DNA from: an uncultured bacterium | GTDB lineage: Bacteria; Ratteibacteria; UBA8468; B48-G9; DTJG01 | Direction of reading: 5' to 3' | NCBI GenBank assembly: GCA_964609735.1 | Contig: CAZSTE010000001.1 | Coordinates: 5,052-69,051, forward strand | Length of the DNA: 64,000 bases | Shown here: piece after piece, positions 26,491 through 61,946 of the stretch | Position numbering within the stretch: position 1 is the stretch's first letter | How the letters are laid out: the number at the start of each line of letters is the position of its first letter | The notes under the pieces: generated by a model | Told to the model about the DNA's origin: nothing | Databases searched by the model: none | What the model saw: only the letters and a program-made list of their open reading frames with translations | Program-made: the position numbers and the translations under genes

Positions 26491-26492
26491 TT

Positions 26493-36596: not shown

Positions 36597-36597
36597 A

Positions 36598-38720: not shown

Positions 38721-38780
38721 CTATGCCTCGCTATATTTTTCTTCTCATGCAGAATTAAAAACAATTTCGTTTTTACCGGT

Positions 38781-39245: not shown

Positions 39246-39254
39246 ATATCTCCG

Positions 39255-40183: not shown

Positions 40184-40460
40184 CAACTCCTCCACGGTTC
40201 AAAATCTTCCAATATTTATATTGTATTTGGATTATACCTGTCTTCAAAAGGATTGTCAAAAATTCTTATCTTGTTTTTTGAAAAGAATAATGATACCCTA
40301 TAATCAAATGGCTGATAACAATGATGAAATTTAAAGGTTTATGTAATCTTTATGAAGAAAAAAAGAAACAATATTGTATGAAGATAGTTAAGCATATTTC
40401 AGCTGTTTATCCAGGCAGAGAAACATAATGTAGATTCCCATCAAAAAAGATGAGGTTTTT

Positions 40461-41000: not shown

Positions 41001-41041
41001 TACGACGTAAAAATTACTTACTCAACCACCAGGAGGTTAAA

Positions 41042-42406: not shown

Positions 42407-42417
42407 CAGGGAAAATA

Positions 42418-43374: not shown

Positions 43375-43399
43375 CAATAGGTAATTACAGCGCAAAATA

Positions 43400-44050
43400 T
43401 TATAACCAGTTTTGTTGTTTCCAATAGCGATATTCTTCCTGCCAATCTTTCTTTCTCGCCATTACAATATGTTTGAAATGTTGTTTGCTTTGTTCTATAA
43501 TCCTCATCTGTCCTTTGAAAATTTTTTTCTTCTGGATTGCTTCTTGAAGTTTTTTCCCCAAAAGGACTGCGATTTTCTTTTTCTCGTCCGCCAGCGGCAC
43601 CCTGGAGAATACACCGCCAACAAACTGTGAACCGCAACTAAAAGCATAATGTTTAATGTAATCAATAACAGGTTTATCGTATCCGCTTCCAGAAGAGACA
43701 ACGCCAACTGCGTATTTGCCCAACAATCTTTTACAATGTAGAAAATGGGTTGAACGGTCAAAAAGCGCCTTCATGGACGCGGTAACACAATTGATATAAT
43801 TAGGACTGGCAAGTATTAAGCCATCTGCCTCAAGCATCCTGTTCATTATAAACGAAACATCGTCTTTCAATGGGCAGTCCATTATCCTGCTGTGGCATCG
43901 TTCGCAATGTATACAAAATTTTATGTTACAATCGCAAAGATGTATGATTTCACAATCGGCATTATTGCATCCTTTCAAAATCTCACCCGCAAGCGCAAAT
44001 GTCTGACTTTTATTTTTTCTTGGGCTGGCTGAAATAAGAAGTATTTTCAT
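43400..44050 (-). CDS. Isf-like iron-sulfur flavoprotein (copy 2)
   Basis: Identical to 12008..12658. Confidence 0.72.
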   Translation of the reverse strand: MKILLISASPRKNKSQTFALAGEILKGCNNADCEIIHLCDCNIKFCIHCERCHSRIMDCPLKDDVSFIMNRMLEADGLILASPNYINCVTASMKALFDRSTHFLHCKRLLGKYAVGVVSSGSGYDKPVIDYIKHYAFSCGSQFVGGVFSRVPLADEKKKIAVLLGKKLQEAIQKKKIFKGQMRIIEQSKQHFKHIVMARKKDWQEEYRYWKQQNWL

Positions 44051-44082
44051 TTTTCATTCTCCCTTTTTATACAAAAATATTA

Positions 44083-45432: not shown

Positions 45433-45549
45433 AAATTGTCTGGTTTGTAAAATGATAAATAAAAAAGATTTTCCTGTAAAATCCAGCGCTTTTTATAAAA
45501 GGTCTAAAATTATATAAAATATAAAATAAAGGATAAAACATAAGACAAA

Positions 45550-46194
45550 ATGAGTATTTTTGCGATTGCGATTACATCTTTTATTGTGGCTTTTTCAGGA
45601 GCGATAAGCCCGGGCCCATTGCTTGCGGTAACCATTAACAGTTCTTTTACAAACGGCGCAAAGGCAGGACCCCTTTTAATCACAGGGCATTCCATTCTGG
45701 AGTTATTGTTGGTTGTTTTGCTTGTTGCCGGTCTTGGAAAATATATAAGAGAGCCTGTTTTTATAAACCTTTTCAGCATTATGGGAGGGGGTATTCTTAT
45801 ATGGATGGCTTTTAATACGATACAGCCCTTTGTTAATGTGGGACAATTGGAGATTCACCAAAAAAATCGTGGTGGTTTTATTTCAAGTGGAATTTTTGTA
45901 AGTTTGGCTAATCCCTACTGGATTATATGGTGGGCAACAATTGGGCTTACCTATCTTTCACTCGCGGCGCCAAGAGGATTTGCTGGATTTGCAGCCTTTT
46001 TTATCGGGCATATTTCCGCAGATTTTTTGTGGTACAGTATTGCTTCTTTTTCAATAGGCAGAGGAAAATACAAAATAACGCCGCGCATCTACCGGCGTAT
46101 TTCTGCTTTCTGCGCGGTATTTCTTGCGGTGTTTGGCGTATTGTTTATATTAAAAGGAATGATCTACAATATGGCTATTGTGTCTGTTGAATAA
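45550..46194 (+). CDS. LysE-family exporter (copy 2)
   Basis: Identical to 14158..14802. Confidence 0.8.
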   Translation: MSIFAIAITSFIVAFSGAISPGPLLAVTINSSFTNGAKAGPLLITGHSILELLLVVLLVAGLGKYIREPVFINLFSIMGGGILIWMAFNTIQPFVNVGQLEIHQKNRGGFISSGIFVSLANPYWIIWWATIGLTYLSLAAPRGFAGFAAFFIGHISADFLWYSIASFSIGRGKYKITPRIYRRISAFCAVFLAVFGVLFILKGMIYNMAIVSVE

Positions 46195-47359
46195 TGTATT
46201 CCACACTTTTTTTAAACCACCAGAGATATTTGTTTAATTCCGGACTATTGAAATTATCCACAAATGGCTGGCCATATTTATTCATTTCTGTTCCGCAGAT
46301 TACAGGGATATTCATTCTGATGCAGGTTGAAAGAAAGATATCAAGATTCGTTACCTTTATTGCCTTTTCTTTCGGGTCTTTGATATTCCAGTTTCTCTCA
46401 GGGATAATGTTGACAATGTTTATTCCTGTTGAAGATAGAAACTGAAGAAATTGTTCAGGGTCTTTTTCTCCTTCGTTTGTGCCATCAAGCCAATTACCAA
46501 TCACAATCCCGCTGCCTTTCATTGCCATATCTACAAACTCATCAATTGTTGGAAATGTTTTTGGTTCTGGTTTAACATAGCCCGGGCCTCCGTTTTTTAC
46601 AAGCACAGAACGTATCTTTTCCATAAAATCGCCCATGTTTTCTTTTTTCATTGTTGCAACCGCATTGGGAGATATCTTCAATATGTCAGCCCAAAAGGCA
46701 TCAGATGATATATCAGGAATTTTTTCAGATTTTTCAATATACGCTTTTATGATGTGTCTTTCAGTGGGATTATTTGAGGGTGTTAACGGATAAACATCGG
46801 TTTGGTAATCAATCACAACAGGAAAAAGAAAATTGTTGAGTTTTTCAACCACCTTCTTGTTTCTGTCTTCGGCAATCTGGCGAAGTTTTTTATATATTTT
46901 TCCTGCATCGGAATTTTTATCGGGAACCCTGTTAAATCCAAATCCGTTTATATAATATACGCCTGGTTCGCCTGGAGAATTTATTACGGCCTGGGACAAT
47001 GATGGCACATAAACCCGGGTTTCAATCCCGACAATGGCCGGCACCCCAAAAAGTTTTGACGAAAGTAGTGTTTCTTCAACAGCTTCAAGCGTATCAAAAT
47101 CAACAATACCGATATGTGTCAATCCGATTTTGTATGCCTCAAGGGTGATTCTTGAAGGGGACCAGTTTTTATAGTTGAATGAATGAAAGGAGTGTATATG
47201 CATGTTATCATAGGGATATTGTTGACCCTTTTGAATTTTGTTGTTTTTGATAAGCTCGGCAACATTAAAAATGGCCTCATGCCTTTTTTTTACATCAAAA
47301 TGGGAAAGTGTATCAATCATATTTTCCATTCCGCACCTTTTTATATAATTTTTGTTCAA
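46175..47359 (-). CDS. PHP-domain phosphoesterase (copy 2)
   Basis: Identical to 14783..15967. Confidence 0.62.
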   Translation of the reverse strand: MNKNYIKRCGMENMIDTLSHFDVKKRHEAIFNVAELIKNNKIQKGQQYPYDNMHIHSFHSFNYKNWSPSRITLEAYKIGLTHIGIVDFDTLEAVEETLLSSKLFGVPAIVGIETRVYVPSLSQAVINSPGEPGVYYINGFGFNRVPDKNSDAGKIYKKLRQIAEDRNKKVVEKLNNFLFPVVIDYQTDVYPLTPSNNPTERHIIKAYIEKSEKIPDISSDAFWADILKISPNAVATMKKENMGDFMEKIRSVLVKNGGPGYVKPEPKTFPTIDEFVDMAMKGSGIVIGNWLDGTNEGEKDPEQFLQFLSSTGINIVNIIPERNWNIKDPKEKAIKVTNLDIFLSTCIRMNIPVICGTEMNKYGQPFVDNFNSPELNKYLWWFKKSVEYIIQQTQ

Positions 47360-47966
47360 TAAATAGATTTGCTCTTTGGATAAGAGGGTCTGTCCAGAAT
47401 CTTACCTGCGATAGATAAAGGTCAATATTTGAATATAATCCCTGGTCTTCAATAAGCCAATCCTGTGCCATTTGAACAGGCGTTTTTTTATCCCATGGCG
47501 TATGTTGCCATATTGCGGAATTTTTATAGAAGGTTGTGTAAATTTCTTTATCCACCGTTGTGTCAAGGGATAGCCAGTTATTGTTGATGAACACCTTTGC
47601 AAAAACATGAACAGTGTGGTTATTGACCATTTCAAAAATATCATCCGGAAGCAATGGCTTAAGGATTTCTTTTTTTATAAGATACACGCCATATCCCGCA
47701 GGAATCCCACAACCGCGCAGAAGGGCTATCTGAAGATTTGCTTTATTAAAACAGTTGCCTGTTTTTTTCTTCAATGTTTCAGAGGCGTATCTCCATGGGT
47801 AATCAAATCTATATTTGATTGTGTCCCTGACAAAATTAAATATGTCTGCAATGGCCTCGAGCATGCTTAAATATCTGTAATTTTTACAAAAATCCGTTAT
47901 TGGTTGCGACCAGCAATCACAATATTTTGTCTGTTTAATATATTCTTCTGACACATAATTTTTCAT
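47313..47966 (-). CDS. Transglutaminase-like protein (copy 2)
   Basis: Identical to 15921..16574. Confidence 0.7.
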   Translation of the reverse strand: MKNYVSEEYIKQTKYCDCWSQPITDFCKNYRYLSMLEAIADIFNFVRDTIKYRFDYPWRYASETLKKKTGNCFNKANLQIALLRGCGIPAGYGVYLIKKEILKPLLPDDIFEMVNNHTVHVFAKVFINNNWLSLDTTVDKEIYTTFYKNSAIWQHTPWDKKTPVQMAQDWLIEDQGLYSNIDLYLSQVRFWTDPLIQRANLFIEQKLYKKVRNGKYD

Positions 47967-48031
47967 ATTTTCTTTGATTGGTTGTATAATAATTATAGGT
48001 TATTTATAAATATTTTACACAAGGATGATGT

Positions 48032-48397
48032 ATGCGCAAAATAATAATGCAGTGTGGGATTTTCATGACAACATTTTTTTTATGCGGCTGCGCGCATTAT
48101 TCAACAAATAATAATTTTTTTGAAGATCTGGAATTCCGAATGGATTTTGCCATGGAGCATGATGAATTTCCACCAGATGTGAGGCAGGCGATTGTTGAAG
48201 GAAAAATTTTGCCTGGGATGAATCAGGATTTGATAAGAACAATATTTGGCGATCCAGAGGAAACATACATGTCAGAAACAGAAATGTTTGAGATGTGGTA
48301 CTATGAAAATTTTACTTTTGGTTTTGATAAAAACGGCAACCTTGTCACAATCTTTGAATCAGACAATATAAAACACAAAAAACAATTGTCCAGGTAA
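48032..48397 (+). CDS. Small secreted/lipoprotein candidate (copy 2)
   Basis: Identical to 16640..17005. Confidence 0.5.
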   Translation: MRKIIMQCGIFMTTFFLCGCAHYSTNNNFFEDLEFRMDFAMEHDEFPPDVRQAIVEGKILPGMNQDLIRTIFGDPEETYMSETEMFEMWYYENFTFGFDKNGNLVTIFESDNIKHKKQLSR

Positions 48398-48429
48398 TCT
48401 TCGACTGCGAATAATTACCATTTTTTAAT

Positions 48430-49572
48430 TTATTTTTTTATGTTTGGGTCGGTTTGAATCTGCGGATGTAGTGTTTTTTTGTTTCTTGATTTTTCTATCA
48501 TTTCACCAATAAATTTATCATACTCATCCCTATCAACAGGTGTTTCAACTGTTTTGTTTTTTAATCCCGAAAGCAGGCAGGCGTTTATAAACTCAACAGA
48601 TTTTAGCCCTTCAATTCCTGGGGCTATGAGCGATTCTCCATCGGTTATAGCCCGGCAGAAATTTTTTATGATTGTTCCGTGGCTTGCGTCTGTTTCAGGA
48701 ATGTTTATCTGCTGTTCTGTTACCTCGGGAGATGCCCACATGCTTTTGTTTGTAACAGTAAATTCACTTATCGGGATAGATGTTGAGAAAAATTTTAATT
48801 GAGTATCAGTAAGAATCATCTTGCCCTTGTCTCCAGCAATTTCAAGGTAAGAAATGCAGGGAACCTCATTGGTGCTTGTGTAATAATACCCCCAGGCGCC
48901 ATTTTCATATTCAAGGAAAACACTTACCTCGTCTTCAACCTCTATATTATGAAGGCGGGTTCTTACTTTTGCCTGGAATTTCTTTGGCAATCCTGCAAGC
49001 ATAATAAAGATATCAATCATATGCGGGGCCTGATTGATTAACACCCCGCCGCCTTCTCCTTTCCATGTCGCCCGCCATAAACCGCTATCGTAATATGCCT
49101 GAGAACGATACCATGGGTTAGAAAGAAGTGTTCTTTTAATTTCGCCAAGCCTGCCATCCGCAATAATCTGTTTTGCGGCAATAAACAGCCCTCTGTTTCT
49201 CATTTGATACATAACAGCAAATACCCTGCCTGTTTTTTTTGCCGCCTCAACCATCGCATCTGCCTGTTTCACGGTAACCGCTATTGGTTTTTCGCTCAGG
49301 ACATGAAGGCCTTTTTCCATTGCATAAACAGCGATTTCAGGATGAAAATAATGAGGGGTGGCGATAATTACTGCCTCTGTTATTCCGCTATCAATAAGTT
49401 TTCTATGGTCTGTAAAATATTTAACCGCGTGTTGTTCAGCCACCTGTTTTGCTCTTGTTTCTTCAGTATCGCAAACTGCCACAAGTTCTGCTTCTTCAAT
49501 CTGTTTTATAACGTTTGCATGGGCCTGGCCCATTCCTCCGATCCCTATAATACCTATCTTAACCTTTTTCAT
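48430..49572 (-). CDS. Gfo/Idh/MocA oxidoreductase (copy 2)
   Basis: Identical to 17038..18180. Confidence 0.85.
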   Translation of the reverse strand: MKKVKIGIIGIGGMGQAHANVIKQIEEAELVAVCDTEETRAKQVAEQHAVKYFTDHRKLIDSGITEAVIIATPHYFHPEIAVYAMEKGLHVLSEKPIAVTVKQADAMVEAAKKTGRVFAVMYQMRNRGLFIAAKQIIADGRLGEIKRTLLSNPWYRSQAYYDSGLWRATWKGEGGGVLINQAPHMIDIFIMLAGLPKKFQAKVRTRLHNIEVEDEVSVFLEYENGAWGYYYTSTNEVPCISYLEIAGDKGKMILTDTQLKFFSTSIPISEFTVTNKSMWASPEVTEQQINIPETDASHGTIIKNFCRAITDGESLIAPGIEGLKSVEFINACLLSGLKNKTVETPVDRDEYDKFIGEMIEKSRNKKTLHPQIQTDPNIKK

Positions 49573-49817
49573 TATTGTCTCCATTCTTTTTATAAAAATT
49601 GAATAATATTTAATTATAACAAAAATTATTCTAAAATCCATTGGCATCCATTTTGGGTGGGAATTGATTTTGTTTGACATTATTTTATAATAAGCGGTAT
49701 AATATTTTTATAAATACAAAAACCGCATTAACATGATTGAAACTTTTTTAAATCAATTTCATCTAAATTAACTGACAATTTAGAATTTCTACCTATTTTC
49801 ATAAAAAGGAGGATGGC

Positions 49818-50117
49818 ATGGCAGAATTCAAAATAAAGCCGCTGGGCGACAGAGTGGTGGTAAAACCAATGGAGCCCGAAGAAAAAACAAAGGGAGGAAT
49901 AATCCTGCCGGATACTGCAAAAGAAAAACCGCAGGAAGGCAAGATTGTCGCTGTTGGAAAGGGCCGTCTTGATGAAGAAGGAAAACATATTAAGATGGAA
50001 GTAAAAGTTGATGATATTGTTTTGTATGGGAAATATGCAGGAACAGAAATTACCGTTGATAACGAAACCTATATGATCCTCCGCGAGGAGGACATCCTTG
50101 GTATTGTAATAAAATAA
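49818..50117 (+). CDS. groES: GroES (copy 2)
   Basis: Identical to 18426..18725. Confidence 0.95.
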
Positions 50118-50132
50118 CAACAGGAGGAAAAT

Positions 50133-51758
50133 ATGGCCAAGCAGATGATTTTTGGTGAAGAAGCCCGAAGAGAAATGCTACGTGGAATGGAAATAGTTGC
50201 TGAAGCGTTAAAACCCACACTCGGTCCAAAAGGAAGGTGCGCTGTTATTGAAAAGAAGTTTGGTTCGCCAACGGTTATCAATGATGGTGTAACAATTGCA
50301 AAAGAGGTTGAGCTGGAAGAACCCTATCAGAACCTTGGCGCGCAATTGTTAAGAGAGGTTGCTTCCAAAACCAATGATATTGCCGGCGATGGAACCACAA
50401 CAGCAACCCTTCTTGCCCTTTCAATTGCAAGAGAAGGTTTTAAAAATGTTGCAGCTGGCGCGAATCCTGTTCATTTAAGACATGGAATTGAAAAAGCCGC
50501 AAAGGCGGTTGTTGACAAGCTGAAGAAGATGAGCCAGCCCATAAAAGATAAGAATGAAATACAACAGGTTGCAGCGATTGCCGCAGCAAATGATTCTGAG
50601 ATTGGAAAGATAATCGCAGATGCTATGGAAAAGGTTGGGAATGAAGGAGTTATTACTGTCGAGGAAGCAAAAGGAACAGAGACAGAGCTTAAGGTCGTTG
50701 AAGGTATGCAGTTTGACCGCGGTTATCTATCCCCTTATTTTGTTACTGATTCTGAAAGAATGGAAGCAGTCCTTGAAGATGCATATATCCTTATCCATGA
50801 CAAAAAGATTTCAGCAATTAAGGATTTGCTTTCAATCCTTGAAAAAATCGCCCAGAGCGGAAGACCTCTTCTTATCATAGCGGAAGATGTTGAGGGTGAA
50901 GCCCTGGCCACGCTTGTTGTTAATAAACTCAGGGGAACCCTTGCATGCTGTGCCGTTAAAGCGCCAGGCTTCGGAGATAGAAGAAAGGCAATGCTGGAGG
51001 ATATTGGAATTTTAACAGGCGGCACTGTTATTGCGGAAGAGCTGGGAATGAAACTTGAAAATGTTGATATCAGCATGCTTGGCAGGGCAAAAAGAATCGT
51101 TGTTGATAAAGAAAACACAACCATTGTTGAAGGTGCTGGTAAGAAATCAGACATTGAAGGAAGAATAAATCAGATAAAAAAGGAAATTGAAAAATCAACC
51201 TCTGACTATGATAAGGAAAAACTTCAGGAACGGCTCGCAAAACTCGCTGGCGGTGTTGCTGTTGTTAATGTTGGAGCCCCAACTGAAGCAGATATGAAAG
51301 AAAGAAAAGCCCGTGTTGAAGATGCATTAAGTGCTACAAGGGCCGCAGTGCAGGAAGGCATTATTCCTGGAGGAGGTGTGGCGTTGCTTAAATGCCAGGC
51401 TGAGATAGACAAGGTTGAATTTGTTGATGAGGATGAAAAAACCGGCGGTAAGATTGTTTACAAGGCATTGGAAACGCCGTTGAGACAGATTGCAGAAAAT
51501 TCAGGGATGGACGGAGCAGTTGTTGTTGATAAGGTAAAATCTTCTGGAAAAGACAGTTTTGGATTTAATGCTGAAAAAGACCAGTTTGAAGACCTTGTCA
51601 AGGCCGGTATTATTGATCCAACAAAGGTTGCAAGGACCGCCCTTGAAAACGCGGTAAGTGTTGCAGCGTTGCTATTGACAACAGAAACCCTTATAACTGA
51701 AAAACCGGAAAAGAAAGAAAAAATGCCTCCGGCTCCACCGGCATATCCTGAATATTAA
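50133..51758 (+). CDS. groEL: GroEL (copy 2)
   Basis: Identical to 18741..20366. Confidence 0.97.
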
Positions 51759-51769
51759 TAAGCACATTC

Positions 51770-51802
51770 AAGGCCCCGCCTGCAGGCGGGGCCTTGCCTT
51801 TT
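51770..51802 (+). terminator. groESL terminator hairpin (copy 2)
   Basis: Identical to 20378..20410. Confidence 0.6.
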
Positions 51803-52078
51803 CCTATGGAACGATGGCATTATATGATAAGGGGAAATGTTCAAGGTGTTGGATTTCGCTGGTATGCAACAGATATAGCAAGAAAATGCCGGGTATACGG
51901 CTGGGTGAAGAATCTACCTGATGGGGCAGTGGAAATTGTTGCAGAGGCTGAGTCAAATGTTCTTGAGTCCTTTACAGAAAAAATAAAAACCGGTTATCTC
52001 GGTTCAAATATTTCCTCTATGGATATTAAAAAAGAGCCGGCCACAGGAGAATTTAGCCAGTTTCAGATTTTGTTTTGA
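51794..52078 (+). CDS. acyP: Acylphosphatase (copy 2)
   Basis: Identical to 20402..20686. Confidence 0.8.
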   Translation: MPFPMERWHYMIRGNVQGVGFRWYATDIARKCRVYGWVKNLPDGAVEIVAEAESNVLESFTEKIKTGYLGSNISSMDIKKEPATGEFSQFQILF

Positions 52079-52090
52079 AATAGGGTTATT

Positions 52091-52486
52091 ATGCCGGAAA
52101 AACAAAAGCAATATAAGGATTTGGCAAAAGCAGGACTGGATGAAAAACTTCCTGAAATTTCGTGGTTTACAAATCTTCATAAAAATTACACAATCACAAT
52201 AGTCATACCTGAATACACCTCGGTTTGTCCTAAATCAGGGAACCCTGATTTTGGCAAAATAACGATTCAGTATCAACCAAAAGAAAGAATTATTGAATTA
52301 AAGTCCCTTAAAGAGTATATTTTTTCTTATAGGAATCTTGGAATATTTTATGAAAATGCGGTTAACCGCATTCTGAAAGACATTGTTTCTTCAATAAAGC
52401 CTATCTGGATTTCTGTAAAAGGTGAATTTACACCACGCGGGGGTATTTGTTCAATTGTTGAAAGTCGCTGGCCTGTAAAGAAATAA
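52091..52486 (+). CDS. queF: QueF (copy 2)
   Basis: Identical to 20699..21094. Confidence 0.85.
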   Translation: MPEKQKQYKDLAKAGLDEKLPEISWFTNLHKNYTITIVIPEYTSVCPKSGNPDFGKITIQYQPKERIIELKSLKEYIFSYRNLGIFYENAVNRILKDIVSSIKPIWISVKGEFTPRGGICSIVESRWPVKK

Positions 52487-52538
52487 ACCAACATGAGCAA
52501 TTTCAGCCATAAAAATAATATGACAAACAGGCATCATC

Positions 52539-53339
52539 TTATTGATTTAGATATTCTTTTAACACCCTGATATCATGGGGAAGTACAACATCTGCTGGCC
52601 ATGCGGCAATGTATTCGCCTGAAAGATAACCCTGATAGTTTATGCCTTTTAACAAGTTAATTGCAATATTGTATGGAATTTCGCCTTTTCCCATAAGTGC
52701 AAGTGTAACATTTCTTTTTTCATCGTATATTCCGTCGTGCACATGGCAGTGTTCTATTAAACCATTAAGATGGTCAAATGCCTGTTGTATTGTCATGTTT
52801 TGCGTATAGGGATGCATAATGTCCCAGTTGATTTTAATAAATGGATTGTTGACAATTTTTACAGTTTTTGCTGCGATATCGGCTCTTGAAAAAAAATCAT
52901 GTGTTTCAAGGCATACAAAAATCTGATTTTTTTCAGCATATTCAGAAATATCGCCAAGACACGTAGAAACAATGTTTATTACATCCTCTACCGACATTTC
53001 TCCATCAGGGCCTCCGCCAAAAACCCTTATTCTTTTTGTGCCAATATCACATGCCAGATCAATAAATGCCTTTGTCAAATCTGTGTTTTCTTTTCTTTTC
53101 TTCTCATCCGCAGAACAGTAACATATTGATGTGGCAAGACACGCGCACTCTATTCCGCTATCAGAAAACATGTTTTTTATTTCATTTCGCTGGGGTTGCG
53201 AGCAGCTAAGCTCGATACCATGGCGATGGTGTGCCTGAGCCCGTGGTTCAACGCCCTCATATCCATATTTTTCTGCATATCCTACCATTTCTTGAAGCGT
53301 TGCTTCAGGACAGGAAAAACTCATAAATGCAAATTTCAT
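52539..53339 (-). CDS. Sugar-phosphate isomerase/epimerase (copy 2)
   Basis: Identical to 21147..21947. Confidence 0.65.
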   Translation of the reverse strand: MKFAFMSFSCPEATLQEMVGYAEKYGYEGVEPRAQAHHRHGIELSCSQPQRNEIKNMFSDSGIECACLATSICYCSADEKKRKENTDLTKAFIDLACDIGTKRIRVFGGGPDGEMSVEDVINIVSTCLGDISEYAEKNQIFVCLETHDFFSRADIAAKTVKIVNNPFIKINWDIMHPYTQNMTIQQAFDHLNGLIEHCHVHDGIYDEKRNVTLALMGKGEIPYNIAINLLKGINYQGYLSGEYIAAWPADVVLPHDIRVLKEYLNQ

Positions 53340-53378
53340 GTTTCCTCCTTGGTGGTGAATATGGAAACAGCTAACATG

Positions 53379-55346
53379 TTACCCAATCAGTATTCCGCAA
53401 AAGGAATGTGAAGGTAAATCCCTGATGCGTATGGTTTTATTTTTTATTTCCGCTGATTTCCAAGATGTTTCAGGAATTTTAAGAATATGCATCTCGGCAT
53501 TTTTTGGGAGATCAAGTTTTTTTGTGTCTATCACAATTTCGCCGCTTATCTTTTTTGTATCGTGAAGATTTGTAACAATCAAAAGTGCCTTTCCTTTGTC
53601 TGATTGCCATAAAGCCGGAAACATCCAATATTCCTTGCAATACACTGCATCTGTTGGGCAGTAGGCGGGGTTGTGAAGTTTTATGATATTTCCAGGCAAT
53701 TCCAGCATGGTATTCCACAATGGCTTTATATATGAAGATGCCCTTGAAAATGGAATATTGGGTTCCAATACAGGATGTCCTGTCATTCCCAATGCAGCGC
53801 AGATTGCTGTTGCTTTTTTGCTGGAAAATTCAGCCCTGTCTTTAAGATTTCCCGCAATTAAATGCGCTCCTGAACAATCCAGGCATGAAAAATATGCTGT
53901 GCTTTCAGGCTGTGTAAGAAGTTCATCATGTCGTATGGATAATTCCCCGCATAATGCGACATCAAGACAACTCTGGCTTAAACCAAAAGGAAACCCTGTA
54001 TGTCCAATGATTACCCCATATTTACCTACTCTTTTACGCATGGCTTTTAGGTACATAAAATATCCATATGAGGACCAATGAAGCAAACTGGTTTTTGTAA
54101 ACCCCATGGCATGAGGAGAATTCCAGTCAGGATAAAATCCATCCCAATCTTTTTGCATATAATCCTCAAACCAGCTTTGGTACATCTGGTATTGTTCACA
54201 TCCCCTGATATATGTTAAAACCCGCATATTACGTTGATGGCATCTGTCAAGAAAAGCCCTGAACCATTTAGGATCCTTAACAACATAGTCAGCAGGCGGT
54301 TCACAATTTGTTCCTGGGTTTTTCATCCAGAATTGATGGATAATCATTACATTGGCTCCAAGATTTGCAACCTCGTCAACCCTTTTTATGTCAGGATTCC
54401 CGCAAAATAACTGTGGCGCCTGACATGCGACCTGTTTGATGGGCATCAAAATCCAGGGCCACTCCTTTCCAATAGTTGCATAAGGATACATACAATGTGC
54501 CACCCTGCAGCCAAGCACATTATTTCTATAAACAGGGTCAACATTTTTTCCGCTTTGGGTTTTTGATGTGAGAAACAGCATGCCCCATTTGTTTCTGTAC
54601 CTAATCGGTTCGTTCAATCTTATCTGCGCCTGATTTAATAAATGCCAGTGAAGCGCCCATTGGTTTCCTTCCTTTCCAGCACTGCTCATTGTATATTCGC
54701 GGGGCGCATCATTAAACGATATCCATTCATCAAGAACAAATTCAATCTTGTTGCTAAAAAACTTTGTTTTTTCCCAGCCAAGGTCTATTGAAACAAGGGG
54801 CCATAATTCTTTTTGAGAGATTGTTTCGTTCATCTGTTTATAAAGGTCAAGTCCATAAAAAACATGGGTTGTTGAATAATCCCTTTTATACCATGGGTTT
54901 CTTGTAAAATAACCCCATCGCGCCGACCTGGCGGTTTCAACATCAAGAAAAACATTCATTGATATTTCATTAATCGTAAAACCCTTTTTTCTTTCTGTAT
55001 CAATAACCTGTTCACAAAAGACGGCGCCTTCGCTAAATATCTCGTATGTTTGTGTGATTTTTATGGAATCATTTGCAAGACCTGCCTTATTCTGGATAAC
55101 AATTTTTTCAGAATCAGCCGATTCAACAATAAGTTTTGATTTTACGTCCGATAGATTGTATATCCTATTGTTTACAATAAATCTCAAACCGCAGATTGTA
55201 TGAGAATCTGAAAGAAGCGGATGTGATTCCATTTCATCCTTACAGAAAAAATCAACTATTTCGCCACCTCTGTTTGCATCCCATGTGAGCCGACCTGACC
55301 CTGTTTCAACAGTAATTTTATTTCTTTCCCTGCGAATCGTTAACAT
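53379..55346 (-). CDS. Conserved hypothetical 655-aa protein (copy 2)
   Basis: Identical to 21987..23954. Confidence 0.45.
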   Translation of the reverse strand: MLTIRRERNKITVETGSGRLTWDANRGGEIVDFFCKDEMESHPLLSDSHTICGLRFIVNNRIYNLSDVKSKLIVESADSEKIVIQNKAGLANDSIKITQTYEIFSEGAVFCEQVIDTERKKGFTINEISMNVFLDVETARSARWGYFTRNPWYKRDYSTTHVFYGLDLYKQMNETISQKELWPLVSIDLGWEKTKFFSNKIEFVLDEWISFNDAPREYTMSSAGKEGNQWALHWHLLNQAQIRLNEPIRYRNKWGMLFLTSKTQSGKNVDPVYRNNVLGCRVAHCMYPYATIGKEWPWILMPIKQVACQAPQLFCGNPDIKRVDEVANLGANVMIIHQFWMKNPGTNCEPPADYVVKDPKWFRAFLDRCHQRNMRVLTYIRGCEQYQMYQSWFEDYMQKDWDGFYPDWNSPHAMGFTKTSLLHWSSYGYFMYLKAMRKRVGKYGVIIGHTGFPFGLSQSCLDVALCGELSIRHDELLTQPESTAYFSCLDCSGAHLIAGNLKDRAEFSSKKATAICAALGMTGHPVLEPNIPFSRASSYIKPLWNTMLELPGNIIKLHNPAYCPTDAVYCKEYWMFPALWQSDKGKALLIVTNLHDTKKISGEIVIDTKKLDLPKNAEMHILKIPETSWKSAEIKNKTIRIRDLPSHSFCGILIG

Positions 55347-55421
55347 ATAAAAACTCCTTGGTAAATTTTTGGATTAATAAGGATTAAATTAAAAACGATG
55401 ATACATCAAAACATTTAATAT

Positions 55422-55446
55422 GTCCAATATATTGGGCATATTGGAC
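55422..55446. promoter_or_regulatory. Nested palindrome operator candidate (copy 2)
   Basis: Identical to 24030..24054. Confidence 0.3.
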
Positions 55447-55525
55447 TGTTTAACAGTGTTGTAATAAGGTGTTATGATATTTTTTGGTTGCATTGTGGAA
55501 TATTCTCGTAAAAACAATCTTTTTA

Positions 55526-56497
55526 TCAGTCCTTCAAAACAATGTTGTCCATAAGTTCTTTATTGTTTATACACCAATCAATTGTTTTTTTAAGCCCTTC
55601 TTCAAGAGAAAAAACAGGCCTCCATCCAAGAATTTTATTTGCCTTTGAAATATCCGCCCAGGTTGCCTGCATATCGCACTGTGGCAATGGCTTGTTTGTA
55701 ATTTTTGCGTTCTTTCCAAGGTATTTTTCTATCAGGGATATTGTTTCATTTATTGTGTAGGGATGATTCCCGCCAAGGTTGATTATTTCAAATCCGACAT
55801 TTTTCAATCCGAGAAGTGTTCCTCTTGCAATGTCTTCAACAAATGTAAAATCTCTGCTTTGATTTCCATCGCCATAAACAGGTATTTCTTTTTCTTCATT
55901 TATTAATTTTATAAACTTAAAGATGCTTAAATCAGGCCTGCCCGCAGGCCCATAAACGGTAAAATACCTGAAAATTGTAATATCCATTCCATAAAGATAA
56001 TGATATGTGTAACAGATAAGTTCTGCTGCTTTTTTTGAGGCTGCATAGGGTGATATGGGGGTGTTAACAGGAAGATTCTCAGAAAATGGCATATCCTGGC
56101 CGGCATACAGGGAGGAGGTTGAAGCAAGGATAAATTTTTTTATCTTGAAACGTTCAGCAAGCGCCAAAAGATTAAGATTTCCACAGACATTTGTTTCAAA
56201 ATATATATGAGGATTTTCAATGCTTGCCCTCACGCCTGCCCGCGCTGCAAGATTAATAATTGCCTCAGGGCTTTTTTCAAAAAAAAGCTTTTCAAGTTCA
56301 TTTTTGTTTCTAATGTCAATCTGCTTGAATTCAAAACCCCTGATTTTTTTCAGGTCATCAAGCCGCCATTGTTTTAACCTTATATCATAATAATCATTGA
56401 TATCATCAATTCCTATAACATCATACCCTGAGTTCAAAGCCATCTTTACCGTCTGCCAACCAATAAATCCAGCACATCCTGTTATAAGTAGTTTCAT
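55526..56497 (-). CDS. NAD-dependent epimerase/dehydratase (copy 2)
   Basis: Identical to 24134..25105. Confidence 0.85.
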   Translation of the reverse strand: MKLLITGCAGFIGWQTVKMALNSGYDVIGIDDINDYYDIRLKQWRLDDLKKIRGFEFKQIDIRNKNELEKLFFEKSPEAIINLAARAGVRASIENPHIYFETNVCGNLNLLALAERFKIKKFILASTSSLYAGQDMPFSENLPVNTPISPYAASKKAAELICYTYHYLYGMDITIFRYFTVYGPAGRPDLSIFKFIKLINEEKEIPVYGDGNQSRDFTFVEDIARGTLLGLKNVGFEIINLGGNHPYTINETISLIEKYLGKNAKITNKPLPQCDMQATWADISKANKILGWRPVFSLEEGLKKTIDWCINNKELMDNIVLKD

Positions 56498-57882
56498 TAT
56501 AGGGTCACACCCATTCCATAATCCGCAATATCTGCTTTTATGGATTTTTTTTCATAAAGAATCTGTTTTAGCGTTTCAAGAGCGCCATCCTCGCCATGCA
56601 CAAGAAATGTGTTGGAAGGCGTATTTTCCACTGGCGAAAGCCACCAGAGTATTTCATTCTGGTCAGCATGGGAGGAAAACCCATTAATCTGAATAACATT
56701 TGCTTTTACTTCTCGATATTCTCCAAGAATTCTTACCTGTTTTTTGCCGCTTATAATTTCTTTGCCCAATGTCCCATTTGCTTGATAGCCAATAAACATA
56801 ATGGTGCTTTCTGGCCTGCTGATATTGGTGATAAGATGATGTTTTATTCTACCACCGGTGCACATTCCAGATCCGGCAATAATGATTACAGAACCCTTTA
56901 CATGATTAATGGATTTTGATTCTTCAACGCTTTCTGTTGGTCTGAGATGCGACATTTCAAAAGGATTATCATATTGGGTCTGCAGGGACGGGCTTAAAAA
57001 ATCTATATATTGTTTGAAGACCTCTGTAATTCTGATTGCCATAGGGCTATCAAGAAATATCCATAGATGCGGAATTCGATCATGCGCGAGTAAATGTTTT
57101 AGACAATATAAGAATTCCTGGGTTCTTTCTATGGCAAAACTTGGAACAACAATATTGCCACCTTTATTTGCTGTTTCTGTGATGGTTTCTGCGATGGTTT
57201 CATACGCTAAAGAATCCGCTTCATGGATTCGGTTGCCATAGGTTGATTCCATCACAAGATGGTCAATATGTGAGAATCGTTCAGGTTCCGGCAGAACATG
57301 CCTGTTTGGTCTTCCAAGGTCTCCTGTAAAAACAAGATTTTGGCCGGAAATGATATCCCTAAATTCCAATATTGTTGAACCAAGAATATGCCCTGCATTA
57401 TGACAGATGAGATTCAGGCCTTTTTCTATCTGAAAGGAATCATCATAAGGAATTTCTTCAAACCTGTCAAAAACATCATATGCCTGGTCTATTGTAAAAA
57501 GAGGTACAACAGGATGTTCTGGAACAATCCCTGTGCGCTGGTGCCTTTGTATTTTCTTTTCTGAGTCCTCCTGATAAATCTTGGCTGCATCAAGAAGCAC
57601 AATCTTTGTTATTTCAATTGTTGGCGCTGTGGCATAGATTTTGCCCTTAAATCCATCCCTTACAAGGCATGGGAGAAATCCGCAGTGGTCAAGATGCGCG
57701 TGCGTAAGAAATATCGCCTTAATAGTGGATGGTTCCACAGGAAATTTTTCCCAGTTTCTTGAAAGAAGCTGTCTTTCTTGATATATTCCGCAGTCAATAA
57801 GAAAATTTTTCTCATTATATGTGAGAAGATGCTTTGATCCTGTAACATTTCTGCTTGCGCCCAGGAATCTGATTGAAAACAT
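56497..57882 (-). CDS. beta-CASP MBL-fold hydrolase (copy 2)
   Basis: Identical to 25105..26490. Confidence 0.78.
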   Translation of the reverse strand: MFSIRFLGASRNVTGSKHLLTYNEKNFLIDCGIYQERQLLSRNWEKFPVEPSTIKAIFLTHAHLDHCGFLPCLVRDGFKGKIYATAPTIEITKIVLLDAAKIYQEDSEKKIQRHQRTGIVPEHPVVPLFTIDQAYDVFDRFEEIPYDDSFQIEKGLNLICHNAGHILGSTILEFRDIISGQNLVFTGDLGRPNRHVLPEPERFSHIDHLVMESTYGNRIHEADSLAYETIAETITETANKGGNIVVPSFAIERTQEFLYCLKHLLAHDRIPHLWIFLDSPMAIRITEVFKQYIDFLSPSLQTQYDNPFEMSHLRPTESVEESKSINHVKGSVIIIAGSGMCTGGRIKHHLITNISRPESTIMFIGYQANGTLGKEIISGKKQVRILGEYREVKANVIQINGFSSHADQNEILWWLSPVENTPSNTFLVHGEDGALETLKQILYEKKSIKADIADYGMGVTL

Positions 57883-57884
57883 TT

Positions 57885-60800
57885 TTATTTTTCCTTGAAC
57901 ATATCAACAAGTATTTCGCTATAAGGTTTTGATGGTTTGGATATTTGTCCTTTTTCATCAGCCCAGACAACCCAGTAGTAAAGTTTTATGCCCGGCCGCA
58001 ATCCATATATATGCTCCCCACTTTTTGCGCCATTTGGGGTCATATTGATTGCGCCTCTTCCATCAGCATATGGTCCAACCCAGATAAAATATCTGGATGC
58101 CTGTTTCATTTCCTTGAAATAAACAAAAACATTTGTTCCATCCGCACCCCAGGAAGGCGGTTGGAGTTTGATGATTGCGCTTGGTTCATAGATACCGGTT
58201 TTCTGCATCTGGGCAATTGGATTTGGGAGATCCGGTATATCCTTTGGTTTTGGCATTTTTATTTTACTTAATGCGATTGCTTTTTCTATTGCGTCTTCAG
58301 GACATTTGTATTCAGCATACATCTTGCCAAAACATACAATATCAGAAGAAACAGGTTGGACATCATTCACATAAAGAATATGTGTTCTTTGTTCCACAAT
58401 AATATTTTCAAGTTTCAATGGTAGATCAACAATCCCATCGCCATCCGCATAGCGCCACCATGTTGTTCCATATTTTCTGAAGTTATCATAGCCTTCATTG
58501 CCGGGTAGTTCAAATGTGATATATCTCCATCCATCAAAATTAAAATAACTCCAGGAATGAACATCATCGCAATTCCACTGGTCCTTTGTTCCGATGCTTA
58601 GCCATCGTTCACCCTTGGCATCTCTAAGACAATAAACAACTCTGCCCCAATCGCTTGCCCCCTTTACCCATAGTCCTATTGCTGATGGAGCGCCTGGAAG
58701 CATAACGGGATGACTTGGTTCAAGGATTGCATACCACGGCATAAGTTGATGAATTTTTTCCTGTTTTTCCAGTTTTGAAACAAGAATATTTCCAAAAATT
58801 TCATCTGTTTGGATTGAGGAAGTAAATCGTCCTTTATATCTAAATGTATCAAAATTATTGGTTTCATAAATCATGTTTCTGTTTTCACTATATTTCCACG
58901 AGCCATCTCCTAAATCCGCAACAGGAATTGCATTTTCCGCAGGTTTTAAATCAGAATGGGTTGGAGTTCCGGCTTCAACATTTACAATCTCGTTTTTTGT
59001 TGCGATATAGGTTACAGATGAATCAATGATAATGGTAATCTTTTTATCAGTGGTGTTGAAAATGGTTGTATTATTCATAACATCGGTTACAGGTATTTCT
59101 CCGTCATGCGCGAATGTAAGCGAAACAGGTCTTTGGCCCCTTATCGTCCACAAGGTATAGATGTTTCCTTTTGTGCCTTTAAATTTTAGACAGAAGCTTG
59201 TAAGGGAACCTGTGGAAAGCCATTTTTCAAATGTGGCATTATTCAATTTATCAGTCATTGTTGCATATGCCGCGTATGCCGGTTTTGGATCGCAGTATGG
59301 AATTCTTCTGAATATGCCGCAACCACCATAGTGTTCGGCGCCATAATCATTGCCGCAATCAAACGCAAACCATCCAGAATAAAATTTTTTAACCCCGTAT
59401 GCCATGCTGATGAGCGTCCATCTATTGTAAATATCCATCTGTTCTTTCCAGGAGCATGCACCTATTTCTGTTGGAACAAAAATACCTTCACAATATCGTA
59501 GGTCTGGTTCTGGAATTCCTGCCTTTTCGTATTCTTTTCGTAACTCATAAAGCCTGTGCACACTGATCTGATGAAGCTGTTGTTCGGGTAATCTTTCAAA
59601 TCCGCATATATCAAGTCCAGAGCCGTCTATCAGTTTTTTTGGGAATCCTGCCCGCAGAAGTGGAACAATAAAAAGCGGATCTCCCCACGGAATCAAAATT
59701 TTTAATTCTGGCCAGGTTTCTCTGATTGCTTCCGCAGCGCATTTTGCTGTTACAAAATGCATCCTTATTCGTTTAATCTCATCATCTGTTGGTTGATATG
59801 GCTCTTCTCCCCAGTATTCCGGATAATTTCCGGCTGTCATTCTGTTGCTGATGGATGGCTCAGGAAAGAAAAAGACATTATCCGGTCTATAATTTTCTGG
59901 AACAGCGTTACGGACCCTTGTGTATGTTTCAATAACCTTCTTTTTATAATCATCATACATCGTCTGGTTGTATGGTTGTTCCGCTGCCCATTCCTGTGGA
60001 TTTACATCCCATGCGCCAGCAGGAATTCGTGCCCAATGGTTTTTCACGTATTCGTTGTTTTCCGCGCCCTGTGGCAAACCGATGCTTGTTCGTGCGCCAG
60101 CCATTGTCATCAAACGGATGTGATGGTCTGCTTTTGGAGTATAAAGCGCGCCATGATAACTCCAGTATCCAAAAAGTGTGGATTTGCCATCCCATTTTTC
60201 TGTTCTTGTATCCGGGGCGAGTAACACAAATGAACGGGTTTCACTCCATACATTATCATCTATTTGAAGACTTGCGATAATCTGATACCAGCCATAACGT
60301 TTTGCTGGGATGCTTAATTTAATGTTTTCAGAGTCTTGCTTTGCAACACGGATATCCTTTTCAATGACGATGTTATCTTGTTTATCATAACTTGCCGCTG
60401 AAAGCTTAAGTTTTCCGATTATGTCATTTTTCCAGCTTGAAATCCTCACCGTATAAGAGGGTGTTTCCGGGGATGTCCATACATGACCGAATCTGTCAGG
60501 ATTTATTGAAAAATCAAATCCGCTTTTTCCTAGTGTTACAGCATAAACATGCACAGACGACGGAAGTCCTGCCTGATGCCAACCATATATAATCGGGTCA
60601 GGATACGACCTAAATTGAACAACCTTTTTTGTTAGTTCAAGTTCAAAAATATCAAGGTCTGAAAAAGAAGATAGTTTTCCCTTATCAAGGGGAATTTTTA
60701 CCAGCCAAAGGTTTGCCTCTTTTCCGTTTGAAAGAAGTACAGGGAATTGCGTGGATGTACTGGCAGTTTTTGTGAAAAGGGGCACCTCTGTTTCAAAATT

Positions 60801-61946
60801 TTGCGCATATCCAGCGCCCGGCCTATAAAACATTGCCGTAAGAATCGGCTTTGAATCCTGTCTGCCGTCTGCCGCGGCAAGAACATAAAGGCAATCATAG
60901 CTATCAAACGGTATTCTTAATTGAATTCTTGCAGGGTCTCTATTTGAAGAACCTGCAAACGCCTGCTGATTAACAGGGAAATATCCCTCAAGTGTTCCTT
61001 CTCTATAAAGAGATTTGCTTATATCAAGATGGTCAAATCCTTCAATATTGGTGCAGGGAGATATAAAAGGAATTCCTGAAATGTTTATGATGGCGTCCGC
61101 AGATTCAAACGGGATTACAAAGGTTTTATCCGTTATTGTTTTACCCTGCGCGTATCCTGCTATTCTGACCGGATAAAAATCAGGTATTTCTTCCTCGGCT
61201 GTTGTGAGAGAAAAACCTGTCATTTGAACATCCTGGCTTAACATAAAAGCGACCAGGCCTTCTTTTGGGAAATCCCCGTTTTTTTTATAGGCAATCAATC
61301 TGTCATCAACCCAGCACCACACAGAATTTTCTCTTAAAACCATTCTTACCTCAATCCATTTTGAATTGTGATCGGGCAAGGGTGCCATATCCTTTTCTAT
61401 CTGTATTCTGTAATCCTCAGGCCATCCTGGAAGTATTTTTGGGTATGCCTTCAATAGATATGTAAAATCATTTGAAAAAGAAGGTGTCCAATCCATATTC
61501 TTTCCAATTTCATTATTATCATAAAGATATTTGCCTGAATTTCTTACAGAGCAAGAAACCCTTTCAGGATATCCTGGATTGTCTGTTGTGGTAATGAATA
61601 GCATCAAACCAGTATCATTGATATCTTTTTTCCCAAGATAAAAATATGCGTAGGCTGAATTGTTAACAGTTGTGCGGAGTTTTATAAGTGCCCGCATTTC
61701 GATGGGGGTATTAAAATTTTCTTTGCCGACCAGCAGGCATGTTGGCGTTGACGCGGTAATAATAGGCATATTGCGTAATGTTTCTTTTTCAACAACAAAA
61801 TCTCCGGTTTGTTTGGTCCAGTTGGTTTCAAACGCCGAAACAAAATCCGCAGAATCTATAAAATTTTGATTTTGCGCGCAGAGAAGTGATGTGAAAAACA
61901 ATGTACCCAAAAACATCACAGCAGAAAAAATCCCGCTTTTCTTCAT
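57885..61946 (-). CDS. Giant (1353-aa) secreted protein of unknown function; full-length copy with N-terminal signal peptide
   Basis: MKKSGIFSAVMFLGTLFFTSLLCAQNQ is a signal peptide with a probable LCA/QNQ cleavage site. It is a multi-domain, Trp/Tyr/Gly-rich protein with no catalytic motif I recognise. The C-terminal 854 aa equal the fragment at 26493..29057. Confidence 0.6.
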   Translation of the reverse strand: MKKSGIFSAVMFLGTLFFTSLLCAQNQNFIDSADFVSAFETNWTKQTGDFVVEKETLRNMPIITASTPTCLLVGKENFNTPIEMRALIKLRTTVNNSAYAYFYLGKKDINDTGLMLFITTTDNPGYPERVSCSVRNSGKYLYDNNEIGKNMDWTPSFSNDFTYLLKAYPKILPGWPEDYRIQIEKDMAPLPDHNSKWIEVRMVLRENSVWCWVDDRLIAYKKNGDFPKEGLVAFMLSQDVQMTGFSLTTAEEEIPDFYPVRIAGYAQGKTITDKTFVIPFESADAIINISGIPFISPCTNIEGFDHLDISKSLYREGTLEGYFPVNQQAFAGSSNRDPARIQLRIPFDSYDCLYVLAAADGRQDSKPILTAMFYRPGAGYAQNFETEVPLFTKTASTSTQFPVLLSNGKEANLWLVKIPLDKGKLSSFSDLDIFELELTKKVVQFRSYPDPIIYGWHQAGLPSSVHVYAVTLGKSGFDFSINPDRFGHVWTSPETPSYTVRISSWKNDIIGKLKLSAASYDKQDNIVIEKDIRVAKQDSENIKLSIPAKRYGWYQIIASLQIDDNVWSETRSFVLLAPDTRTEKWDGKSTLFGYWSYHGALYTPKADHHIRLMTMAGARTSIGLPQGAENNEYVKNHWARIPAGAWDVNPQEWAAEQPYNQTMYDDYKKKVIETYTRVRNAVPENYRPDNVFFFPEPSISNRMTAGNYPEYWGEEPYQPTDDEIKRIRMHFVTAKCAAEAIRETWPELKILIPWGDPLFIVPLLRAGFPKKLIDGSGLDICGFERLPEQQLHQISVHRLYELRKEYEKAGIPEPDLRYCEGIFVPTEIGACSWKEQMDIYNRWTLISMAYGVKKFYSGWFAFDCGNDYGAEHYGGCGIFRRIPYCDPKPAYAAYATMTDKLNNATFEKWLSTGSLTSFCLKFKGTKGNIYTLWTIRGQRPVSLTFAHDGEIPVTDVMNNTTIFNTTDKKITIIIDSSVTYIATKNEIVNVEAGTPTHSDLKPAENAIPVADLGDGSWKYSENRNMIYETNNFDTFRYKGRFTSSIQTDEIFGNILVSKLEKQEKIHQLMPWYAILEPSHPVMLPGAPSAIGLWVKGASDWGRVVYCLRDAKGERWLSIGTKDQWNCDDVHSWSYFNFDGWRYITFELPGNEGYDNFRKYGTTWWRYADGDGIVDLPLKLENIIVEQRTHILYVNDVQPVSSDIVCFGKMYAEYKCPEDAIEKAIALSKIKMPKPKDIPDLPNPIAQMQKTGIYEPSAIIKLQPPSWGADGTNVFVYFKEMKQASRYFIWVGPYADGRGAINMTPNGAKSGEHIYGLRPGIKLYYWVVWADEKGQISKPSKPYSEILVDMFKEK

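Follow-up and report, generated by a model that had tools for sequence, protein, structure and literature searches.

A large protein with a predicted GH-A-like fold, encoded beside a beta-CASP ribonuclease and an epimerase-like protein in an uncultured bacterium

Most families of glycoside hydrolase (GH) clan GH-A, including GH1, GH2, GH5, GH10 and GH39, have an Asn directly before the acid/base Glu, giving an N-E-P/S motif. Amongst the beta-CASP nucleases, motif C is a His in the RNA type and a Val in the DNA-specific SNM1/Artemis group. TTHA0252 of Thermus thermophilus is a 5'-3' exo-RNase, and probably an endo-RNase too, disruption of which changes global mRNA levels in Thermus (PMC4229858). 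Proteins resembling both groups are encoded side by side, together with an epimerase-like short-chain dehydrogenase/reductase (SDR), at the locus described here. It lies within the window, the whole 64,000-nucleotide stretch of DNA that was analysed (contig CAZSTE010000001.1, from an uncultured bacterium). An earlier note, made from this sequence alone, had put the three genes forward as an unusual functional unit. We consider it likely that they are instead three functionally unrelated genes, co-oriented and tightly packed, and that the largest encodes a glycosidase built on the clan GH-A plan. The genes, and the signal peptide of the large protein, are as follows:

57885..61946, minus strand: large gene, a 1353-aa open reading frame (ORF) for a predicted exported multi-domain protein, from a family that lacks annotation and resembles the glycoside hydrolases of clan GH-A
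56497..57882, minus strand: beta-CASP metallo-beta-lactamase (MBL) RNase gene, 461 aa, recognised by Pfam, PDB match and motifs, without a signal peptide
55526..56497, minus strand: SDR gene, 323 aa, recognised by its Pfam Epimerase domain, of the extended-SDR nucleotide-sugar epimerase/dehydratase family, with a product predicted to be cytoplasmic
61875..61946, minus strand: predicted Sec signal peptide of the large protein, residues 1-24 (MKKSGIFSAVMFLGTLFFTSLLCA, followed by QN), its n-, h- and c-regions read from the translation

In agreement with the earlier note, the large protein could not be tied to a known enzyme family by sequence. The whole protein matched no family in either Pfam or NCBIfam, and six segments of it, searched against Pfam at E values of up to 10, returned nothing except a faint match to DUF1080 (PF06439, E = 0.13, scoring 12.8 bits against a cut-off of 26.8 bits). 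Amongst the PDB sequences, no match below E = 0.2 was found either by phmmer with the protein itself or with a profile of 48 family sequences. There are 279 homologs, nearly all of which are full length and which range from 99% down to around 47% identity; the ORF is therefore a genuine gene. Mean column identity is 51% over the whole length of the family, which spans metagenome-assembled genomes (MAGs) labelled Omnitrophota, Planctomycetota, Verrucomicrobiota, Lentisphaerota and Kiritimatiellia; the matches listed come from uncultured genomes of the Planctomycetes-Verrucomicrobia-Chlamydiae group and of Omnitrophota type. An exhaustive HMMER search with a profile of the barrel domain alone put the family at 555 clusters at 50% identity (E <= 1e-3). 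Ten distant matches to this profile were compared with Pfam in search of a bridge to a named GH family; none had a GH domain, and one had a CBM_4_9 domain at its N-terminus, which supports a link with carbohydrates. No specific description of the family was found in the literature.

The signal peptide had also been noticed before, and its three regions can be read as expected; by a crude rule, rather than a dedicated predictor, 40 of 48 homologs have a hydrophobic stretch at the N-terminus. The N-terminal sequence thus points to export of the large protein through the Sec pathway. The composition had been called rich in Trp, Tyr and Gly: Trp (2.9%) and Tyr (5.2%) are indeed enriched, but Gly (6.7%) is not. 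Several paralogs are present in many of the genomes sampled (80 loci were fetched, all from MAGs); for instance, the JACQHZ01 MAG has six (L009, L016, L018, L019, L040 and L044) and the JAHFSY01 MAG four (L010, L011, L012 and L042). Single Verrucomicrobia MAGs have between four and six, at 40-63% identity to the query, an expansion typical of substrate-diversified carbohydrate-active enzymes (CAZymes).

The large protein was modelled by AlphaFold2 (AF2) in two overlapping pieces, each with an alignment of 120 sequences, and the models were compared with the PDB using Foldseek. The N-terminal piece (residues 24-600) had a predicted local distance difference test score (pLDDT) of 91.4 and a predicted template modelling score (pTM) of 0.91, the equivalent values for the C-terminal piece (residues 561-1353) being 87.8 and 0.85. 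The top matches of the C-terminal piece were GH39, GH30, PslG and GH5 structures, with E values from 1e-11 to 1e-7 and target-normalised template modelling (TM) scores of 0.5-0.59. They included GH39 5jvk (1.1e-11), PslG 5bx9 (1.8e-9), and the GH30 enzymes Xyn30D (4qaw) and XynC (3kl0) at 1e-10 to 1e-7; further matches were to GH5 CtXyl5A (5g56) and GH157. Alignments to GH30 and GH39 spanned 440-460 columns, corresponding to the barrel plus the beta-sandwich that follows it. The N-terminal piece matched the DUF1080-type protein BT3469 (4jqt, 1.3e-7), CBM66 (4b1m, target TM score 0.62), the lectin-like half of botulinum Hc, and the N-terminal sugar-binding and immunoglobulin-like (Ig-like) domains of a series of GH2 enzymes (8u01, 5t99, 8dhl, 5uj6, 3cmg and 9bey). 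As Foldseek matches came without residue ranges, we placed them on single domains by domain order. From the N-terminus, the predicted domains are:

61203..61853, minus strand: concanavalin-A-like jelly roll (DUF1080/3-keto-disaccharide-hydrolase-like, CBM66-like), residues ~32-248, from the N-terminal model, 4jqt, 4b1m and the faint PF06439 match
60498..61178, minus strand: beta jelly roll like the GH2 N-terminal sugar-binding domain, residues ~257-483, with boundaries from DSSP and the GH2 match assigned by order
60219..60482, minus strand: Ig-like beta-sandwich, residues ~489-576, all-beta by DSSP at positions 466-553 of the N-terminal piece, likewise assigned by order
59244..60179, minus strand: (beta/alpha)8 barrel, residues ~590-901, from the C-terminal model and the GH39, GH30, PslG and GH5 matches
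58971..59234, minus strand: beta-sandwich after the barrel, as in GH30 and GH39, residues ~905-992, from DSSP of the C-terminal model
58311..58928, minus strand: highly conserved beta jelly roll, residues ~1007-1212, from the conservation profile and DSSP
57912..58175, minus strand: FN3-like C-terminal domain, residues ~1258-1345, followed by the tail LVDxFKEK, from DSSP, Foldseek FN3 matches and the alignment

On these models, the architecture is a GH2-like order of domains around a GH39/GH30-like barrel. The earlier guess of a multi-domain carbohydrate-active exoprotein is thereby strengthened, as the predicted GH-A-like barrel is accompanied by lectin-like and CBM-like beta domains. The barrel is amongst the most conserved parts of the family, with column identities of 75-94%. 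This is matched or exceeded by the C-terminal jelly roll, in which column identity is 82-89% over residues 1081-1200, and for which the sole fold match is a weak one, to the spirochaete sheath protein FlaA1 (9cyn, target TM score 0.55), placed there by domain order. The same jelly roll is rich in invariant Asp, Asn, Trp and Gly residues. The tail (residues 1346-1353; 57888..57911, minus strand) is nearly invariant across the family, even where no gene follows closely. Within the barrel, residues 866-884 (59295..59351, minus strand) form a block, GNxYGxEHYGGCGIxRRIP, at 91-94% column identity, yet these are its worst-predicted part, with pLDDT below 50; they may constitute a mobile active-site loop, or a metal or disulfide site beyond what AF2 can place.

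Two further features of the predicted barrel are those expected of clan GH-A. Strands and helices alternate over residues 590-901, as in a (beta/alpha)8 barrel, and a Glu is positioned at the C-terminal end of both strand 4 and strand 7: Glu696 (FFFPEPS) comes just after strand VFFF, the fourth, and Glu820 (RYCEG) ends strand LRYCE, the seventh, with two strands between them. This spacing matches the strand-4/strand-7 arrangement that defines the clan, and both residues are invariant in 120 homologs. Judged by position in the model and by conservation, Glu696 is the candidate acid/base and Glu820 the candidate nucleophile. The large protein is hence most likely an exported retaining glycosidase, its hydrolase activity being predicted from the fold, from a so-far unannotated family on the clan GH-A plan; relative to Pfam, NCBIfam and the PDB, it is probably a new family-level member of the clan GH-A-like enzymes. 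In such an enzyme, an N-terminal lectin-like module would be followed by the GH2-like jelly roll, the Ig-like domain and the (beta/alpha)8 catalytic core, where Glu696 on strand 4 would act as acid/base and Glu820 on strand 7 as nucleophile, with the three C-terminal beta-sandwich domains probably shaping or extending the substrate-binding site.

A number of points weigh against this assignment. The candidate acid/base Glu lacks the Asn found before it in most families of the clan, the query having P-E-P at this point and its paralogs G-E-P, G-E-S or A-E-P, and the catalytic residues were assigned on a predicted model in which the most conserved loop (866-884) is poorly predicted. The homologs are all unnamed or 'hypothetical', lacking any precomputed Pfam domain, and the named ones are uncharacterised; the PDB sequence search likewise gave no solved relative. 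The family may also already carry a GH number, having been set apart by comparison with Pfam, NCBIfam and the PDB rather than with CAZy or dbCAN.

A rival explanation is that the large protein is no enzyme at all, and is instead a surface adhesin or glycan-binding protein on a retained GH-like scaffold. This would account for the loss of the canonical Asn, for five or six of the seven domains being beta-sandwich or lectin-like, and for the C-terminal jelly roll being the most conserved segment outside the barrel. However, pseudo-enzymes usually lose such residues as the strand-4 and strand-7 Glu, which here are invariant in 120 sequences from several phyla, and a barrel amongst the most conserved regions is typical of active enzymes. 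We therefore regard a non-enzymatic role as unlikely, and continue to favour a glycosidase.

The layout of the locus is exactly as previously described, with three minus-strand ORFs separated by a 2-nt gap and a stop/start overlap. The junction between the large gene and the beta-CASP gene reads ...GAA AAA TAA AA ATG..., whilst that between the beta-CASP and SDR genes, which overlap by 1 nt, reads ...CTA TAATG AAA.... The ATG that starts the large gene is preceded, at a distance of 7 nt, by a Shine-Dalgarno sequence, GGAGGA, and an AAGGA within the 3' end of the large gene, where it codes for the C-terminal tail, could provide the beta-CASP gene with a ribosome-binding site. A terminator scan gave no match in either junction, although promoter and terminator counts were near or below the shuffled expectation, making the scan uninformative. 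Judging by the spacing and the lack of a terminator match at the junctions, the three genes are probably cotranscribed in the source genome. Such packing is the norm in this window, where coding density is around 93%, and 12 of the 21 same-strand gene pairs are no more than 10 nt apart, seven of them overlapping. As unrelated genes are included in this, the tight chaining of the trio is unremarkable. Over 29134..39245 (minus strand), for example, unrelated housekeeping genes are chained, with spacings of 4 nt for argJ/dnaJ and -4 nt for each of ispD/PIN-TRAM, radA/mlaD and mlaE/dnaB.

The second gene of the trio encodes a typical beta-CASP protein, with Pfam Beta-Casp (1.6e-36, 125.9 bits) and RMMBL (4.8e-15, 55.7 bits) domains both above their cut-offs. 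MBL motifs 1-4 are represented by D30, H61xH63xD65H66, H165 and D188, and beta-CASP motifs A, B and C by E212, H405 and H429. The best solved relative is Thermus TTHA0252 (2dkf, 2.7e-83), followed by Cas14, archaeal CPSF and CPSF-73. On the basis of its sequence, the 461-aa protein is an RNA-type beta-CASP nuclease of the CPSF-73/TTHA0252 type, and it would be expected to act as a cytoplasmic TTHA0252-type ribonuclease in general RNA turnover. It belongs to a very large family, with at least 8000 matches. Three more specific identities were tried and rejected. RNase J models fell far below their cut-offs (TIGR00649, 24 against 400 bits; RNase J1, 20.7 against 820 bits). The type VII CRISPR protein Cas14 model scored 383 against 800 bits, covering positions 3-425 of 612 with the C-terminal part missing, and that of archaeal aCPSF1 scored 288 against 580 bits over positions 177-620 of 631. 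Of the previous description as an RNase-J/CPSF-like nuclease, then, the CPSF half is retained, with motifs A-C present, and the RNase J half is not.

The third gene had been called a GalE-family epimerase. Its 323-aa product has a Pfam Epimerase domain (PF01370, 1.4e-56, 192 bits) and the GxxGxxG and YxxxK motifs, so membership of the SDR superfamily stands; the narrower name does not, the score against the GalE equivalog TIGR01179 being 173.4 bits against a cut-off of 262.3 bits, and that against the RmlB equivalog also being below its cut-off. The best PDB matches are 5u4q and 6zl6, the latter deposited as 'Epimerase domain-containing protein'; 6zl6 is presumably the Bacillus cereus UDP-glucuronic acid 4-epimerase, an enzyme of the glycan-biosynthesis type. 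The protein is likely to work in the cytoplasm, as an NAD-dependent SDR resembling nucleotide-sugar epimerases.

Gene order was surveyed by tblastn with the window's neighbours across the 80 genome loci encoding members of the large-protein family, taking 10-kb flanks. The co-directional trio, with the same 2-nt spacing, is present at just six of them (L001, L003, L004, L005, L006 and L021). The large protein is at least 68% identical to that of the window at all six, and elsewhere only at L002, where the contig ends inside the gene. In a sister clade (L085, L086 and L094; 58-60% identity in the large protein and 58% in the beta-CASP protein), a flavodoxin gene is followed by the large gene, which is convergent to the SDR/beta-CASP pair. 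On a Ratteibacteria-labelled contig (L087; beta-CASP protein at 54%), the beta-CASP/SDR pair occupies the same upstream context and the large gene is absent. More distantly, four beta-CASP homologs at around 50% identity have neither the large gene nor an SDR gene as a neighbour; conversely, a 57% homolog of the large protein and around 70 other family loci have neither a beta-CASP nor an SDR gene within reach (the 10-kb flanks, for the 80 loci). Nor was any recurrent partner of the family revealed by all-against-all clustering of 455 neighbouring ORFs from the 80 loci, or by Pfam searches with the 138 nearest, in which the commonest domains were PhyH, in four, and AraC/LacI-type regulators, in three.

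A conserved three-gene system should retain the same set of genes, in the same order, in distant relatives of each component, and this is not what was found. The trio is a lineage-specific gene order in a gene-dense genome, not a shared pathway or a new system, and the earlier proposal of an unusual functional unit does not survive: the arrangement is confined to close relatives, becomes convergent in the sister clade and is reduced to a pair in L087. The earlier note had named two findings that would speak against it, of which one was made, in that the adjacency breaks down in relatives; the other was not, as the large protein has not been placed in a well-characterised family by sequence.

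It could still be argued that the three genes make up a true system, so far undescribed, with the beta-CASP protein working alongside the exported one, for example through post-transcriptional control of its mRNA or as a nuclease/effector pair. The 2-nt gap and 1-nt overlap, with no terminator match in either junction, would suit such a system, as would the identical spacing in six relatives with outer flanks that differ from those of the window. Yet the flipped orientation in the sister clade implies that cotranscription is not required, and the beta-CASP protein comes from a huge housekeeping family found in unrelated contexts and lies far under the Cas14 cut-off (by the scores given above). 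Furthermore, the large-protein family has no conserved partner, and tight packing is normal in this window. The gene order survey thus largely refutes this explanation, to which we attach very little probability.

A more restricted link would involve the large protein and the SDR alone, as in exopolysaccharide loci of the PslG/psl style, with the SDR making a nucleotide-sugar precursor of a self-made glycan, the exported hydrolase trimming or releasing it, and the beta-CASP gene a bystander. PslG is amongst the best fold matches of the large protein, the best named PDB relative of the SDR, 6zl6, is of the glycan-biosynthesis type, the large and SDR genes remain neighbours whichever way they are oriented across the clade at 58% identity or more, and an SGNH/GDSL esterase gene follows the SDR gene in relatives. 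However, no glycosyltransferase, flippase or polymerase gene is found nearby, either in the window or at the relatives' loci examined. The SDR partner is lacking at around 70 other loci of the family, L087 has the beta-CASP/SDR pair but no large gene, and the presence of several paralogs per genome fits nutrient acquisition better. An exopolysaccharide locus therefore seems improbable.

Three functionally unrelated genes remains the reading we prefer, though one aspect of the survey counts against it. The large gene stays next to the beta-CASP and SDR genes through an inversion, in a clade at 58-80% identity and with differing outer flanks, and such persistence is mild evidence of some selective linkage. 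It is conceivable, though distinctly unlikely, that the large protein founds an unclassified GH family, with the missing Asn and the extra, almost invariant C-terminal jelly roll pointing to an unusual substrate or mechanism, and that its adjacency to the other two genes reflects a real functional link, such as remodelling of a self-made glycan with a precursor supplied by the SDR.

The surroundings of the trio differ between the window and its relatives. The outer flanks of the relatives are alike, with a flavodoxin gene upstream, and a GDSL/SGNH hydrolase gene and sugar-phosphate genes downstream, unlike those of the window. In L001, L004, L005, L006 and L021, the same-strand GDSL/SGNH hydrolase gene comes after the SDR gene, and the opposite strand encodes an SDR, a ribulose-phosphate 3-epimerase and a DeoC/LacD aldolase. 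In the window, by contrast, a 655-aa ORF (53379..55346, minus strand) is found 179 nt downstream of the SDR gene on the same strand, and after it a xylose-isomerase-like TIM-barrel gene (52539..53339); hence the downstream flank appears to have been replaced. The 655-aa ORF has no obvious signal peptide and no sequence match in Pfam, NCBIfam or the PDB, and an ORF 21% identical to it lies near a large-protein paralog in a Victivallaceae MAG (L079:16928-18529). Bins in this group bear conflicting taxonomic labels: L001 (DYKA01000007.1), labelled 'Vermiphilus sp.' (Dependentiae), carries the same trio block, at 77-82% identity, as do MAGs assigned to Omnitrophota, Ratteibacteria or TA06, to which the bacterium of the window is related.

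A second, 3' copy of the large gene, reported earlier at 26493..29091, is real, and marks the end of an exact direct repeat of 29,091 bp. Positions 1..29091 of the window are 100% identical to 31393..60483, with a period of 31,392 bp, such that dnaB, groEL, radA, mla genes and others are doubled. The relevant features are:

24134..29091, minus strand: duplicate block, with second copies of the SDR gene (24134..25105) and the beta-CASP gene (25105..26490), and with the final 2599 nt of the large gene (26493..29091), starting at the third base of codon 488
29091..29092, no strand: repeat junction, at which nt 37 of uvrB is joined to the interior of the large gene, at the third base of codon 488

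The junction is out of frame and lacks microhomology, and uvrB lies 5 nt downstream of dnaJ. In assemblies from the same population (99.8-99.9% identity), the native large gene is intact in L081, and the native dnaJ, with uvrB 5 nt later, is present in L093; native joints are the only ones in these other assemblies. The layout, A-B-A'-C, fits equally well with a very recent tandem duplication, having a unit of 31,392 bp and a first copy that starts to the left of the window, or with an assembly artefact. A 39-mer spanning the junction was not found in metagenome contigs, but this negative says nothing because the native-junction control was also missed, even though the Joint Genome Institute (JGI) contig L081 carries it. 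The truncated copy of the large gene is accounted for by the repeat, and the reading of the three genes is unaffected. The four independent contigs L081, L082, L083 and L084, from the same population, all end inside the large gene (at around codon 28, at around codon 514 and, twice, 29 codons before the stop), and these repeated breaks hint at strain variation or at graph tangles induced by paralogs.

Since the combination of a secreted giant protein, an RNase and an epimerase is not a unit, no new system is at stake. What is left is a sizeable conserved family, of around 555 clusters at 50% identity, with a predicted GH-A-like fold and without Pfam or NCBIfam annotation or a solved relative. 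If biochemically confirmed, it would provide a new carbohydrate-active family for lineages in which carbon metabolism has been inferred almost wholly from annotation (Omnitrophota, Planctomycetota, Verrucomicrobiota and Lentisphaerota), and would give better CAZyme counts for metagenomes from groundwater, lakes and digesters, a useful but incremental gain.

Set against described systems, the beta-CASP protein shares its length class, its MBL, beta-CASP and RMMBL domains and all catalytic motifs with TTHA0252, differing in an insertion of around 35 residues (about 105-141). The SDR, for which UDP-sugar 4-epimerases are the nearest described counterparts, matches 6zl6 over its full length at 1.7e-58 and has the GxxGxxG and YxxxK motifs of extended SDRs, but falls under the GalE and RmlB equivalog cut-offs of NCBIfam. 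For the large protein, the jelly-roll fold of the N-terminal domain is that of the DUF1080/3-keto-disaccharide hydrolase-like protein BT3469 (4jqt) and of CBM66, although its PF06439 match is far under the Pfam cut-off and, in this case, the fold makes up an accessory module within a far larger protein. As in the GH2 enzymes of the beta-galactosidase, beta-glucuronidase and beta-mannosidase type, a sugar-binding jelly roll and an Ig-like domain precede a GH-A barrel, which is followed by beta-sandwiches; unlike them, it has no Pfam GH2 domain match, its barrel is closest to GH39 and GH30, and an extra ConA-like domain lies in front. With the clan GH-A enzymes of GH39 (5jvk, PslG 5bx9) and GH30 (XynC 3kl0, Xyn30D 4qaw) it shares the barrel plus beta-sandwich, the Glu residues at the ends of strands 4 and 7 and, by prediction here, export. 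It departs from them in having only 8-16% identity and no match to a Pfam GH model, in the Pro, Gly or Ala that takes the place of Asn before the putative acid/base Glu, and in being around three times bigger, with four extra domains.

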